A stretch of 64,000 nt of DNA from an uncultured Candidatus Saccharibacteria bacterium. GTDB lineage: Bacteria; Patescibacteriota; CAZHWT01. The translations under genes were made by a program, and so were the position numbers. The notes beneath the pieces are model-generated. The model saw nothing but the letters and a program-made list of their open reading frames with translations. It ran no database searches and had not been told where the DNA came from. Shown piece by piece: positions 54,713 through 61,420 of the stretch. The first letter of the stretch is position 1, and each line of letters starts with the position of its first letter. The stretch covers positions 314 to 64,313 of the forward strand of contig CAZKPX010000007.1 in NCBI GenBank assembly GCA_964554805.1. Reading direction: 5' to 3'.

Positions 54713-55567
54713 ATGTTCACCGTTGTAGCCGCTATTGTTTTTATAGTCATCGTTATTATTCTCGTCTCCTTGTACGTAGTTCTTCATCGTCGCGAGCAAA
54801 AACTAGTCAAAGAGCTCAAAGATACCAAGCAAAAAGCTGCTGATGGCGGTTTCTTAGAAAATAGACTCCAAGAAATCCAATCCAGAGCGCTGCAGCAAGA
54901 GCAAAAAATCCTCGAAGATGCTCAGGTTCAAGCTAGTACTGTGGTTACCCAAGCCCAGCAACAAGCCAGCCAAGCAATCGCTGGAGCCCAGGCTCAAGCG
55001 GAGCAGGTGGTCAGTCAAGCGCAGACTCAAGTTCAGCAGTCATTGACCCAAGCTCAACAGCAAGCCACACAGTTAACAACCGCTGCCAGTCAGCAAGCGC
55101 AACAATTAGTTGAGCAAACCGCTACTACCCTCAAAACCATTGAGACCGAATTTCAGCAGAACGAAGAGCAGCAATTAGCGCCGGTTTATGATCAGGCGGC
55201 TCAAAGTGTTACCAATGTCACTAGTCAGCTTGAAGAAAAAACCCAGCAGCTGTTCGACAAGATGCAAACCGAGATGACCGCTCAGATCCAGACTCGCTAT
55301 CAAGAAATGGATAGCAAGATGGAAGGGGAGTGGGCTGCCGCGCGAGCCAACATTGAAGAATACAAAAAGCAGAAGCAAGCAGAAGCTGATCAGTGGAAGG
55401 CTGACTCGGAAAAGCGACTTGAGGACAATATTTTAGAACTACTGTCAGAAACTCTCAAAACCACCATCCATGTTACCCTTACTCCCAAAGAGCACCAAAA
55501 GCTAGTTTTTGATGCTCTGGAACAAGCCAAGGAGAATAATGCCTTTACAGCCGCAGATCCAAAGTGA
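54713..55567 (+). CDS. atpF: F-type ATP synthase subunit b-like (elongated, Gln/Ala-rich coiled coil)
   Basis: Single N-terminal TM helix, then a long predicted coiled coil with low-complexity QAQQQASQ repeats. Position immediately upstream of delta-alpha-gamma-beta-epsilon. At 284 aa it is far longer than typical b subunits. Confidence 0.55.
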   Translation: MFTVVAAIVFIVIVIILVSLYVVLHRREQKLVKELKDTKQKAADGGFLENRLQEIQSRALQQEQKILEDAQVQASTVVTQAQQQASQAIAGAQAQAEQVVSQAQTQVQQSLTQAQQQATQLTTAASQQAQQLVEQTATTLKTIETEFQQNEEQQLAPVYDQAAQSVTNVTSQLEEKTQQLFDKMQTEMTAQIQTRYQEMDSKMEGEWAAARANIEEYKKQKQAEADQWKADSEKRLEDNILELLSETLKTTIHVTLTPKEHQKLVFDALEQAKENNAFTAADPK

Positions 55568-55571
55568 TGTC

Positions 55572-56216
55572 ATGGCATTGATTGCCACCATCCCTACAGT
55601 CAAAGAGGCTGTTTTAACCAAGCAGGGCTTGCGTAGTTTGCGTGATGAAATTCTCTACCGCAATGCCAAGAATCCGCTTAAGGCCAATGACAACGAGCGG
55701 CTGCAGTCGCTTGGGCTAGGGCAGCTTGTCATGGACTGGTTGGTCTCCGAAGGCGGTCGGACTGCGTTTGATGATATTAAAAACTGCGGTCCGGACGCCA
55801 TTCTGCAGGCCTTTGACGCCGGTCTTAAACAGGTTGAATTGGTCCAGCTAACACTGGCCTATGTCGCTTCGGTCGATGATGCTGTACGGTACCATAAATG
55901 GTTTAATCAAGTCTTAAATCGCCCGGTTATGCTTGATTTGCGTCTCAACCCTCAGCTTTTGGCAGGCGTCATGTTTGTTTATCAAAATCATCTCTATGAT
56001 TACAGTCTGCGTCGCCAAATGCCCCAACTCCAACAAGCTCTATTAGAAAACTACAAACAATTCACGGCTAGCCAATCTACGCCTGCAACAAGCGACGAGT
56101 CACAAGCGACGAGTCAATTAACTCAAGATGTAGACAAAAATACAGAAGTCGGTACTAATACTCGTCGCCAGTCGCCAGTCGCCAGTACTCTTCATGACGG
56201 AGCAATTCCGTCATGA
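55572..56216 (+). CDS. atpH: F-type ATP synthase subunit delta (OSCP-like) with repeat-derived C-terminal extension
   Basis: Position between b and alpha; ATG 4 nt after the atpF stop; ATGA overlap with atpA. The C-terminus (...ATSDESQATSQ...RRQSPVAS...) is encoded by a GCGACGRG-type element. Confidence 0.6.
   Translation: MALIATIPTVKEAVLTKQGLRSLRDEILYRNAKNPLKANDNERLQSLGLGQLVMDWLVSEGGRTAFDDIKNCGPDAILQAFDAGLKQVELVQLTLAYVASVDDAVRYHKWFNQVLNRPVMLDLRLNPQLLAGVMFVYQNHLYDYSLRRQMPQLQQALLENYKQFTASQSTPATSDESQATSQLTQDVDKNTEVGTNTRRQSPVASTLHDGAIPS
56088..56188. repeat. GCGACGRG-type inverted-repeat element, copy A (in the atpH 3' coding region)
   Basis: Left end GCGACGAGTCACAAGCGACGAGTC (56092-56115); right end CTCGTCGCCAGTCGCCAGTCGCCAG (56161-56185), the reverse complement of GCGACGRG arrays. 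In frame. Confidence 0.6.
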
Positions 56217-58797: not shown

Positions 58798-61092
58798 ATG
58801 GATAAAAAGTTTATGGATGAAATCAACCCAACCACCACCTCGGATACAACCACCCCAAATCTTGCAACGAGCGACGAGCAACAAGCAACAGCACCCCAGC
58901 CAGCAATCGCTGACTCTACCAGTCGCCCGTCGCCCGTCGCAAGTCGCTCCGAAGCCCCCCCGGCTGAGGCAGGTACAGTCCAAAACCCCTCCAACACCGA
59001 CACCTCCAAGTCTCAGGGAACAATCATGTCCATTAGGGGTCAGATTGTTGAGATAGCCTGTCTAGATCAACAACCCAAGCTTCAAGAACTCATGACCAGT
59101 CCCGAAATTCCCAACCTACGCATGGAAGTAATTCGATTTGCTCCAACCGGCAATGTGGTTTGTGTAGCCATGGGAAATCTTAATGGTGTTCGCCGAGGCA
59201 TCAAGGTCGTTGGCACAGGTCAGACCATCGAAGTGCCTGTCGGCGACAACACAAAGGGTCGAATTATGAACCTGTTTGGCGATCCAGTTGATGGTGGGGG
59301 AGAGATTGATCGTGGTCGAACCGTTTCAATATACAAAAACGCTCCGGATTATACCCAAATTAAAACCTCCCTTGAACTGCTCGAAACAGGCATCAAAGTT
59401 ATCGACTTCTTCACCCCATTCGTTAAGGGTGGTAAAACGGGCTTCGTTGGTGGCGCTGGTGTGGGCAAAACGTTCCTTATTACCGAGCTGATGCACAACA
59501 TCTCCAAGTTCCATTCCGGCGTATCAGTCTTCGGCGGTATCGGCGAACGTATTCGTGAAGGCCACGAGCTGTTCGAAAGCCTAGGCGAATCAGGAGTGCT
59601 CAAAGATGTAGCCTTGGTCTTTGGTCAAATGAATGAAAACCCTGCCATTCGTTCTCGTGTTGGCTTGAGCGCTGTCACCTTGGCAGAATATTTCCGCGAT
59701 GAGCAAAAGAAAGACGTGCTGCTATTCATCGATAATGTCTTCCGTCTTATTCAGGCCGGAAATGAAATCTCCACCATGACCAACACCATTCCTTCAGAAG
59801 GTGGATATCAGGCCGAACTGGTTAGCCAGATGGCAGCTTTCCAAGAACGAATTGTCTCAACTGTCGATGGGTCTGTAACGTCGGTGCAGGCTATTTATGT
59901 GCCATCCGATGATGTCACCGATCCGGGTGTGCAGGTTATTTTGCCCTATATGAACTCCATGGTTATCCTGTCTCGAAGCGTAGCCGAGCGCGGCATATAT
60001 CCTGCGGTCGATGTTTTTGAATCCACCTCCTCAGTCCTCACCCCAGAAGTGGTTGGAGACAAGCATTATAATGCCGTGCTATCGGCACAGCTGTTGCTGA
60101 ATAAATATACCGAACTATCCCATATGGTAGCTATTATCGGTGAGGCTGAATTGTCGGCTGAACAAAAGCTGGACTACGGTCGAGCCAAAAAGCTAATTAA
60201 TTATATGTCACAGCCGTTCTTTGTCGCCGAAGCCCAAACCGGCCGACCTGGATATTATGTTGAGCGCGAACAAGCCGTTGACGATGTTCTGGCTATTATA
60301 GCCGGCGAATACGATGAACGAACCGAAGATGAATTTATGAATATTGGAGATCTTAGCACCATCGATACCGCTCACACAGCCAAACCAGCCGGCCATGACA
60401 CACCAAGCGAGACCCCCCCGTCGCCCAGCCAGCCCACCACTAATCTTGCGACGAGCGACGAGCCACAAGCAACAGCACCCCAGCCAGCACCCAACACCTC
60501 ACCCGCAATCGCTGACTCCACCAGTCACCAGTCACCAGTCGCCAGTCGCTCCGAAGCCGCCCCGGCTGAGGCCCCTCCAACCGATCCCTCACCAGCAGCC
60601 TATCAGGTCACTGTGGCCGATGGTACTCCTGACACCAATCAAGCACAAACCACCCTGCTAGATGCGGCTGTGGCCACCAAAATCAGTATGTCCACCACAG
60701 CTCAATCCGGTCCGGACTTGACTTCAACTCCAGCACCCACCCCCAGTCCTGCGACGAGCGACGAGCCACAAGCAGTAGGAGCACAGGCAACAGCACCACA
60801 GGCAGCACCCAACACCTCATCAGCAATCAGTGATCCCCCCAGTCGCCAGTCGCCCGTCGCTAGTCCTCCCCCCGAAGCCGCCTCCCAAGCCAAGCCTCGC
60901 AGTATCCTCCGCTCAGCTCCGGCCCCACAACCGGTCCCAGTTAGCCAAGCAGATCTCGATGATGTCAGCGGCTCAGCCCTAGATGCCTTGGCTGCCGCTC
61001 AAGCAACGACCGACAAGCGACAAGCGACAAGTAAAAATGAAGCCCCATCGCCCGTTGCCAATCCAATAGATGCGACAAAGGAGAATAAGTAA
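58798..61092 (+). CDS. atpD: F-type ATP synthase subunit beta with long low-complexity N- and C-terminal extensions
   Basis: P-loop GGAGVGKT, beta core ([40 protein letters not shown]). 764 aa in frame versus about 470 for typical beta; the extensions contain three copies of a GCGACGRG-type element. The true start could be the internal Met at about 59023 (MSIRGQIV). Confidence 0.85.
58864..58948. repeat. GCGACGRG-type inverted-repeat element, copy B (atpD 5' extension)
   Basis: ACGAGCGACGAGC at 58867-58879 ... CAGTCGCCCGTCGCCCGTCGCAAGTCGC at 58920-58947. Confidence 0.6.
60446..60550. repeat. GCGACGRG-type inverted-repeat element, copy C (atpD 3' extension)
   Basis: GCGACGAGCGACGAGC at 60449-60464 ... 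CAGTCACCAGTCACCAGTCGCCAGTCGC at 60522-60549. Near-duplicate of copy B over about 100 bp. Confidence 0.6.
60748..60866. repeat. GCGACGRG-type inverted-repeat element, copy D (atpD 3' extension)
   Basis: GCGACGAGCGACGAGC at 60751-60766 ... CAGTCGCCAGTCGCCCGTCGCTAGTCC at 60840-60866. Confidence 0.6.
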
Positions 61093-61162
61093 TGCTTCAA
61101 GAGCACAGATCCTCGTCGCCCGTCGCCCGTCGCTCTGATTCTCCAAAGGAGAATAAGTAATG
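61076..61162. repeat. 19-bp direct duplication (CAAAGGAGAATAAGTAATG) flanking a 49-bp insert with a partial GCGACGRG-type end, at the atpD/atpC junction
   Basis: Copies at 61076-61094 and 61144-61162. The insert contains CCTCGTCGCCCGTCGCCCGTCGC and creates a 22-codon mini-ORF ([22 protein letters not shown]) whose stop overlaps the atpC ATG. Confidence 0.7.
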
Positions 61163-61420
61163 CCTCACGTCAAACCAACTTTCCATCTACGCATCAGCAA
61201 TCCGGAACGGGTATTCTTTGATGGCAACGCCTATAGTCTGTCATCAAAAAATAACTCCGGCCCTTTCGACATTCTCCCTGATCACGCTCAATTTATATCG
61301 CTCCTCAATCAGGCCGAAGTATCTGTCCATCAAGAAGACGACAAAACCCAAACCTACGCCATCAACCGCGGTCTCATATCAGCCAAGGGCAATATTGTTA
61401 GGGTGTTTGTAGACATCTAG
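61160..61420 (+). CDS. atpC: F-type ATP synthase subunit epsilon
   Basis: 86 aa; the epsilon-like beta-sandwich N-terminus (RISNPERVFFDGNAYSL) follows beta directly; AAGGAG RBS. Confidence 0.75.
   Translation: MPHVKPTFHLRISNPERVFFDGNAYSLSSKNNSGPFDILPDHAQFISLLNQAEVSVHQEDDKTQTYAINRGLISAKGNIVRVFVDI

Follow-up and report, generated by a model that had tools for sequence, protein, structure and literature searches.

An F-type ATPase gene cluster with extended subunits and no ring gene nearby in an uncultured bacterium of the candidate phyla radiation

Introduction

F-type ATPases are among the most conserved machines, and their coupling needs both subunit a and the carboxylate of subunit c. The DNA analysed here, a window of 64,000 nt from one contig of an uncultured Candidatus Saccharibacteria bacterium, contains at positions 54713-61420 a cluster of F-type ATPase (atp) genes in which neither of these subunits is encoded and in which several of the others carry long low-complexity extensions. 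The locus raises the question of what enzyme such a cluster could specify, and where its membrane part went and its extensions came from. The evidence presented below suggests that it belongs to a divergent operon type of the Microgenomates and WWE3 lineages of the candidate phyla radiation (CPR), which in this clade appears to have lost the gene for a subunit c-like protein from its head. Every negative result for the window as a whole covers these 64 kb only.

Gene content of the ATPase cluster

Six intact open reading frames (ORFs) on the same strand encode, in this order, subunits b, delta, alpha, gamma, beta and epsilon:

54713..55567, plus strand: subunit b, peripheral stalk; 284 aa, one N-terminal transmembrane (TM) helix and an elongated Gln/Ala-rich helix
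55539..56216, plus strand: subunit delta, OSCP-like; 225 aa when read from ATG 55539, with a 29-nt overlap with b
56213..57883, plus strand: subunit alpha; 556 aa, Pfam ATP-synt_ab and ATP-synt_ab_C
57883..58794, plus strand: subunit gamma; 303 aa, Pfam ATP-synt, E 4e-27
58798-61092, plus strand: beta ORF; 764 aa
59014..60420, plus strand: beta catalytic core, residues 73-541; PDB alignment, invariant columns and a predicted local distance difference test score (pLDDT) >90
61160..61420, plus strand: subunit epsilon; 86 aa, Pfam ATP-synt_DE_N over residues 8-85

Among the window proteins, alpha, gamma, beta and the N-terminal domain of epsilon gave high-confidence Pfam matches. The delta and alpha genes share an ATGA overlap, alpha and gamma share a TAATG with GAAGGAGG just before it, and a gap of 3 nt separates the gamma stop from the ATG of the beta ORF. 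No multi-TM gene is found among the six genes of the cluster.

Residues ~70-521 of beta align with solved beta subunits of the PDB at E 9e-128, and invariant alignment columns hold the P-loop GGAGVGKT (K224, T225), the catalytic Glu/Arg (E250/R251), the Walker B Asp (D312) and the adenine-binding Tyr (Y367). By these features beta has an ordinary, catalytically complete core (~73-531) placed between low-complexity flanks. Residues 14-479 of alpha match solved alpha subunits at E 3e-102, and the LSVSRVG motif with the arginine finger is kept. Epsilon consists of the beta-sandwich only and lacks the C-terminal helical (inhibitory) domain.

The stator subunits are more divergent. A Pfam search with the window b protein alone returned no match; the profile of b and 25 orthologues had solved b subunits as its best match (E 1.3e-8), spanning the N-terminal TM helix and the C-terminal delta-binding motif, and because of this match the first ORF was assigned to subunit b. 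The orthologue from locus L001, a close relative described below, matched ATP-synt_B at E 0.001. Orthologues of delta matched OSCP at E 5e-6 to 2e-8. Translation of delta most likely starts at ATG 55539 and not at TTG 55509, as judged from an AAGGAG site ahead of this ATG and from the N-terminus MP..SD..L..LPT.KEA, which is kept in relatives. The region as a whole encodes a cytoplasmic head (alpha, beta), a shaft (gamma with a short epsilon) and a membrane-anchored stator (b, delta).

A previous sequence-only reading of the region had proposed the order b-delta-alpha-gamma-beta-epsilon, which is borne out by Pfam, the PDB alignments and the b profile. It had also described a beta of 764 aa extended at both ends, a Ser/Pro-rich extension of alpha and a Gln/Ala-rich b of 284 aa, and these features hold as well: beta has ~72 extra residues at its N-terminus and ~223-233 at its C-terminus, the last ~65 residues of alpha form a Ser/Pro/Thr-rich tail (31% Ser, 13% Pro), and residues 61-175 of b are 30% Gln and 17% Ala.

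Search for subunits a and c in the window

The same reading had noted that genes for a and c are absent upstream of the cluster, and this extends to the whole 64 kb. No subunit c or c-like gene was detected in the window by phmmer with c subunits, by hmmsearch with a profile of the c-like family described below or by a motif scan, and Pfam searches with all multi-TM ORFs of the window gave no ATP-synt_A match for subunit a; eight of these ORFs belong to unrelated families and two had no significant match. One candidate for c, at 17163-18173, was rejected. It contains a TM hairpin with an RQP loop, the only one in the window, and a Glu 18 residues after the Pro, and it turned out to be the membrane anchor of an SNase-type nuclease.

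Relatives and operon lineage

Close relatives with visible gene context are the loci L001, L006 and L007; L008 and L009 belong to the same clade. The placement of alpha and beta is a similarity ranking and not a tree. In this ranking the beta core is 81-82% identical to those of L001 and L006 (best local alignment across six close relatives 64-84%), and the best matches outside the clade were the nearest outgroup, locus L111 (56%), and Curtissbacteria/Gottesmanbacteria (53-54%), i.e. Microgenomates. A metagenome scan with the beta core returned relatives at <=55% identity only and no further clade members.

The close relatives have a beta of 648-746 aa where complete, an alpha of 562-572 aa and a gamma of 322-327 aa. 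L001, L006 and L007 display the identical six-gene layout, with no a, c, c-like or other membrane gene in the flanks, and the ~120 kb examined in total around the atp genes of the clade (window, L001, L006-L009) yielded no gene for c-like, a or c. The gene order of L111 is c-like, b, delta, alpha, gamma, beta (459 aa) and epsilon (88 aa), and a conserved gene of 258 aa lies directly upstream of b in Curtissbacteria (L002) and in L003. Compared with a median of 463 aa for beta and 491 aa for alpha, these subunits measure 688-764 aa and 556-572 aa in the clade. The canonical reference, locus L005 of Doudnabacteria, carries an atpI-a-c-b-delta-alpha-gamma-beta-epsilon operon.

On these comparisons the cluster is a member of the Microgenomates/WWE3-type divergent ATPase operon. 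Because L111 keeps the c-like gene directly upstream of b, the window clade has lost this gene from the operon head and has gained subunit extensions. The extensions, on five of the six subunits, coincide with the loss of the c-like gene from the operon.

The arrangement of atp genes varies further among the loci examined. In L009, beta and epsilon follow a G6PD gene, and a G6PD gene also lies 4 kb upstream of the window cluster; in L004, alpha, gamma and a beta-epsilon set are separated by unrelated genes.

The c-like protein family

A scan of a genome collection yielded 80 c-like loci (L010-L073 among them), in 60 of which the match takes in the C-terminal hairpin. Members of the family are of ~250 aa and comprise a signal peptide, an exported beta-rich domain and a C-terminal TM hairpin (the genes lie at L002:5441-6217, L003:3678-4454 and L111:2-475). 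The hairpin loop contains an invariant RNP inside a conserved (A/G)(I/V)(G/S)RNP(L/M)A; according to the predicted topology, this loop would be cytoplasmic. The family is large: at E <=1e-30 its profile recovers at least 724 clusters (50% identity). The loci come from, among others, WWE3 (the complete genome CP006914.1 included), Woykebacteria, and Levy-, Ames-, Davies-, Roizman- and Gottesmanbacteria.

Pfam gave no match for the c-like protein, and its homology was established from sequence and profile searches against the PDB, hhalign and fold comparison. Solved c subunits were the best matches (E 0.03 with one sequence, 0.003 with a profile), and hhalign against nine canonical c subunits gave 87% probability (E 4e-6). 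In the AlphaFold model (pLDDT 86.5) the hairpin superposes on c subunits with a root mean square deviation of 1.1-3.3 A, and the N-domain is similar to phage capsid decoration proteins. Helix 2 contains no Asp or Glu in any of 120 members. The c-like hairpin is thus a homologue of subunit c without the membrane carboxylate.

Complete alpha, gamma, beta and epsilon ORFs are also present in 53-57 of the 60 hairpin-bearing loci, where c-like immediately precedes the F1 genes, in most cases with b and delta in between. Operons of this type generally encode a short epsilon (median 88 aa, vs 143 aa in the canonical operon of Doudnabacteria). No canonical a or c was found in the c-like loci, nor was a recurrent a-like multi-TM ORF detected near the operons; upstream of the c-like genes only five multi-TM ORFs were seen, with no recurrence. 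A recurrent ORF of ~210 aa with five TM helices, located 2-3 kb downstream of the WWE3 epsilon, was considered as subunit a and discarded, its HEFAHA...NLxPxxPLDG motif being site-2-protease-like; this HEFAHA...PLDG gene is kept in L034, L042, L049, L053, L058 and L071.

Two variants of the operon were also observed. In L032, L046, L051 and L070, c-like is followed directly by alpha after a gap of ~250-300 nt with no space for b and delta, and the stator genes seem to be absent or relocated. In L014, L018, L019 and L020, ~2 kb of extra sequence lies between alpha and gamma, which in L014 includes an ORF of 190 aa with five TM helices.

In a complete WWE3 genome, Kantor et al. (2013; PMC3812714) described F1-adjacent subunits without homology to known a, b and c, and a putative c that is shared with OP11 operons. 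According to our profiles and alignments, the three upstream genes that were taken as a, b and c resolve as c-like, b and delta, so that no subunit a is left in the WWE3-type operon. Beyond that study, nothing specific was found in the literature on CPR ATPases without a and c. The odd WWE3 operon had been mentioned there only briefly, and this ATPase of the CPR has hardly been studied.

Proposed mode of action and its alternatives

The cluster probably encodes a functional rotary ATPase, biased towards hydrolysis, with a ring partner encoded at another site of the genome. We propose that the ancestral operon was Microgenomates/WWE3-like, with the c-like protein first and without canonical a and c genes, that the c-like gene would then have gone from the 5' end of the operon in the window clade, and that low-complexity tails or inserts, probably disordered, would have been added at both ends of beta, to alpha, delta and b and, less markedly, to gamma. 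In this particular genome, the tails of delta and beta would derive largely from local duplication of a 100-145-nt module, and that of alpha from a hexanucleotide repeat. The enzyme would be a functional rotary motor that mainly hydrolyses ATP, because its epsilon is without the inhibitory domain; b would tether it to the membrane, its ring partner would most likely be a c-like protein, and the tails would not take part in catalysis but would be either tolerated spacers or arms for interaction. Measured against the beta core, gamma and epsilon show the same degree of conservation as in the lineages that keep c-like (z +0.2 to -1.4), and because of this a working shaft and, indirectly, a ring partner elsewhere are suggested.

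Several points weigh against this interpretation. That a gene for the ring or channel exists elsewhere has to be assumed, with ~64 kb of the genome examined, and the scattered atp genes of L004 and L009 prove only that dispersal occurs. We know of no way in which a c-like ring without carboxylate could move ions in the absence of subunit a, and because no ion route is known under these conditions an ATP-driven pump cannot be assumed. Subunit b is recognised through the family profile alone, and the same profile matches other coiled-coil proteins; the OSCP match of the window delta (21.3 bits) lies under the Pfam cut-off of 22.3. The tail sequences are not conserved between relatives and cannot be aligned with those of the window despite their similar length, and a specific function of the tails is for this reason unsupported. 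Finally, translation of the 72 N-terminal residues of beta is in doubt, and is considered only somewhat probable.

A rather unlikely alternative is an F1 with a stator and neither ring nor channel, which would have lost its membrane rotor, remained tethered through b and been re-purposed, with the tails as interaction arms. The absence of c-like, a and c genes from the ~120 kb around the clade's atp genes fits such an enzyme, as does the coincidence between loss of c-like and extension of five subunits, and the re-purposed F1-like ATPases of mycoplasmas, one of them with a beta of 784 aa, provide a precedent. Such an absence carries little weight, however, when a small fraction of the genome is covered. 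Moreover, epsilon is retained and not detectably relaxed, and we know of no role for it beyond enzyme regulation and the connection of gamma to the ring; b likewise retains its TM helix and its delta-binding end.

That the operon was simply split, with a canonical Fo encoded elsewhere, a proton- or sodium-coupled F1Fo as product and tails that represent neutral low-complexity growth, is clearly unlikely. Such an enzyme would explain why b and delta are kept, as is the domain of epsilon that binds the ring, and why gamma and epsilon are under normal constraint; a fully canonical operon does exist in another CPR lineage (Doudnabacteria), atp genes are dispersed in some relatives, and low-complexity segments also occur in ~10 other window proteins. 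Against it stand the nearest outgroup and ~60 related genomes, which carry the carboxylate-less c-like gene and in which no canonical a or c was detected, as well as the report of Kantor et al. for their complete WWE3 genome (PMC3812714). A canonical Fo in the clade would require re-acquisition.

The subunit tails

The two extensions of beta are as follows:

58798..59013, plus strand: beta N-terminal extension, residues 1-72; open frame and codon score, translation uncertain
60421..61092, plus strand: beta C-terminal tail with stop codon; codon score, low pLDDT and the tails of relatives

AlphaFold models the beta core with pLDDT >90 and assigns pLDDT <50 and no secondary structure to residues 1-63 and 532-764. 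The C-terminal tail is composed of 20% Ala, 16% Pro, 13% Ser and 11% Thr and has a net charge of -11. C-terminal tails of 183-280 aa are present on beta in all close relatives and represent a clade-wide trait. The tails of relatives share subclade-specific end motifs only, e.g. KFNxSxVKPSxPE[DE], and when the beta tails from seven members of the clade were aligned, no motif in common with the window emerged; four relatives have a possible G-E-I-K-V-x-V motif, to which the window offers only a weak match (YQVTV).

It is very improbable that the extensions as a whole are annotation artefacts, either because beta starts at Met77 or because C/A-rich frames merely lack stops. Several further frames are indeed open across the tail regions. 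Still, there is no in-frame stop between the beta core and 61090, and the annotated frame has the top codon score of the six frames in all four tails, with a modest margin. Long C-terminal tails in every close relative, conserved subclade end motifs, the reading of all repeat modules (see below) in one frame, and the ends of the alpha and beta tails, which finish in coupling junctions composed of a Shine-Dalgarno (SD) site and TAATG, all argue for translation. A stretch that takes in the final 433 nt of the beta tail and the epsilon junction (60660-61920) is also reproduced with 100% identity in two Logan assemblies from other Sequence Read Archive runs, possibly of the same sample set, and because the two assemblies are identical to the window this stretch is unlikely to be an assembly artefact. 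Exact look-up of epsilon returned two short Logan contigs, and that of the database twin of beta (P0001) returned no contig.

For the 72 N-terminal residues of beta taken separately, an artefact is plausible, if the somewhat less probable case. No SD site precedes the ATG at 58798, a weak SD-like AGGGA stands before Met77 (59026), and in relatives the position of this extension is occupied by a stop-filled, AT-rich, non-coding gamma-beta spacer.

Hairpin modules and the origin of the tails

Much of the sequence added to delta and beta consists of copies of one hairpin module, and further short repeats occur in the alpha tail and at a gene junction:

56078..56196, plus strand: hairpin module 1, delta C-terminal tail; heptamer arms 56085-56107 and 56164-56189
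58856..58954, plus strand: hairpin module 2, beta N-terminal extension; minus-strand fold of -54.1 kcal/mol, z -6.5
60440..60556, plus strand: hairpin module 3, beta C-terminal tail; 93% identity to module 2 over 56 nt
60743..60874, plus strand: hairpin module 4, beta C-terminal tail; from repeat and fold analysis
60996..61140, plus strand: hairpin module 5, across the beta stop codon; arms 61003-61032 and 61115-61133, minus-strand fold of -66.6 kcal/mol, z -6.7
61043..61178, plus strand: 68-nt tandem duplication, with a second copy of the AAAGGAGAATAAGTAATG junction (stop of beta, SD site and start of epsilon)
57808..57865, plus strand: hexanucleotide tandem repeat TTCTAG/TCCTAG, 9.7 copies, coding for the Ser/Pro run of the alpha tail

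The five modules, of 100-145 nt each, are built from imperfect inverted arms of heptamer repeats, (GCGACGA)n and (GTCGCCN)n, with loops that differ in two copies, and all are read in one frame (ATSDE...SPVAS). They account for the extra 40 aa of delta, about half of the N-terminal extension of beta and more than half of its C-terminal tail; the stretch of module 1 is absent from the delta of relatives, and the right arm of module 5 sits in the beta-epsilon spacer. The modules fold far better as minus-strand RNA (z down to -6.7), with 25 G.U pairs vs 1 on the plus strand. This bias was not accepted as proof of an antisense RNA, since an A/C-rich coding strand gives the same bias.

Outside the operon, the 64 kb contain a single partial heptamer run, at 26005-26044 in the gene of a UvrD/AddA-type helicase-nuclease (24057-27512). 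Its four to five CCGTCGC heptamers encode SPVARRPSP in a linker of this protein and are identical in sequence and reading frame to the right arm of the atp modules. A search with the module's translation as query, using a strict word filter, found no other protein.

The simplest reading of the origin of the modules is local duplication. Because five of the six copies lie within one operon and the arms are heptamer repeats, local duplication or slippage is likelier than a mobile element; the module may be an element at the nucleic-acid level or a product of slippage. The duplications at the gamma/beta (16-nt) and beta/epsilon (68-nt) junctions point the same way. The former concerns the 16-nt AGTTTATGGATGAAAT, which occurs at the end of gamma and again just inside beta (58778-58825).

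The upstream spacer

Three elements occupy the 300-nt spacer upstream of b, as the sequence-only reading had described:

54431..54464, plus strand: terminator-like hairpin with T-run, AAAAAATCCCCG-CTCAAC-CGGGGATTTTTT, which ends the upstream gene 53756-54412
54494..54540, plus strand: small intergenic repeat copy, previously named 'family-1', matching 14509-14548 and 43012-43040
54628..54636, plus strand: exact extended -10, promoter-like, TGCTATAAT, read from the sequence

The hairpin at 54431-54464 is supported by its self-complementarity and was not called by a consensus terminator scanner; a promoter scan near b gave a single weaker -35/-10 pair only. The repeat has a core, GGATATCGTAAAA, between GCGGATAT...ATATCCGC and is present in three copies in the window. 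An Rfam scan of the window gave no match, the intergenic repeat family included.

To explain the absence of a and c, the sequence-only reading had offered a repeat-mediated rearrangement or an atypical enzyme organisation. The second gains support from the Microgenomates/WWE3-type operons, which start with the c-like fusion and not with canonical a and c. A recent rearrangement in this genome is hardly credible: a copy of the dispersed repeat does lie directly upstream of b, but the repeat is confined to this genome, its core was not found at the loci of relatives, and L001, L006 and L007, whose upstream sequence differs from that of the window, share the truncated layout without any spacer repeat, so that the layout is older than the repeat and a repeat-mediated split is not supported; the gene that was lost is, moreover, c-like and not canonical a or c.

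Comparison with known systems

The closest known counterpart is the WWE3/OP11 operon (Kantor et al. 2013, PMC3812714), which shares with the window cluster recognisable alpha, beta, gamma and epsilon, a short epsilon, the closest relatives of beta, and a long divergent b with one TM helix and a divergent delta, both of which evade routine annotation. The window clade differs by the missing c-like gene at the operon start and by its long low-complexity tails. Canonical F1Fo operons (atpI-B-E-F-H-A-G-D-C) have the same order from b to epsilon and equally complete alpha and beta cores (E 1e-100 or better); unlike them, the window has no a or c in 64 kb, an epsilon without C-terminal domain, a b that is ~120 aa longer and a beta that is ~300 aa longer.

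The F1-like X0 ATPases of mycoplasmas, Types 2 and 3 (Beven et al. 2012, PMC3369863; Berlureau et al. 2026, PMC12994834; for gliding in M. mobile, PMC8406192 and PMC11864180), are encoded by clusters of seven genes, three of which have no known homologue (two of these are multi-TM), and coexist with a genuine F1Fo. They resemble the window cluster in having F1-type alpha-, beta-, gamma- and epsilon-like genes without canonical Fo in a genome-reduced bacterium, and in a long beta (784 aa in 9io5). In contrast, the window cluster has six genes, including b and delta, and no multi-TM gene, and its beta is closer to genuine beta subunits (E 9e-128) than to the beta of the G1-ATPase (E 5e-90).

In the mycobacterial ATP synthase, alpha carries a C-terminal extension of ~35 aa, reported to engage gamma, and b and delta are fused. 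Fusion chains of this type (8j0s_d, 9vkp_d) were among the PDB matches of the b profile. Additional C-terminal sequence on alpha and a remodelled stator on an otherwise standard F1 are common to both systems, whereas the window tails are much longer, of low complexity, unconserved and predicted to be unstructured. Palindromic elements of Rickettsia are palindromic repeats inserted in frame in protein-coding genes. The hairpin modules of the window are similarly located inside ORFs, keep the frame and are absent from orthologues; they differ in that five of six copies lie in one operon and in that their arms are heptamer tandem repeats.

Neighbouring genes

In the window and in L001, the atp cluster is located between two conserved surface-protein genes (window 50322-51494 and 61935-62939; L001:4480-5559 and 12512-13483), which are ~50% identical between the two genomes. 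One encodes a secreted protein of 360-390 aa and the other a DUF916/WxLIP-like protein of ~330 aa with a C-terminal TM helix, which is also present in L006 (L006:8471-9451). This synteny survives changes in orientation. Just downstream of the cluster, 61499-61870 and 63094-63453 encode members of the 23S-rRNA-intervening-sequence protein family (four-helix bundle), one of which sits between epsilon and the syntenic surface-protein gene.

Significance

The locus shows clearly how protein tails can be built up by duplication of a hairpin repeat. With regard to the enzyme, the operon of this CPR branch has no subunit a, and its c homologue lacks the carboxylate and has an exported domain; in the window clade the c-like gene has also gone from the operon, while the remaining subunits are conserved and large disordered tails were acquired. 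A tentative idea, possible if not probable, is that in this branch (Microgenomates, WWE3 and relatives) the F-type ATPase is a rotary or mechanical machine without ion translocation. F1 would then sit on a carboxylate-less c-like ring with exported, decoration-like domains and no subunit a, and ATP hydrolysis would move a cell-surface structure instead of ions; the window clade would have gone one step further, with its ring gene uncoupled or lost and with long disordered arms on head and stator subunits to meet a new partner. Should the enzyme be active, either the membrane is energised by an unfamiliar route or mechanical work is done, and either answer bears on how fermentative, host-dependent bacteria without a respiratory chain maintain their membrane potential.

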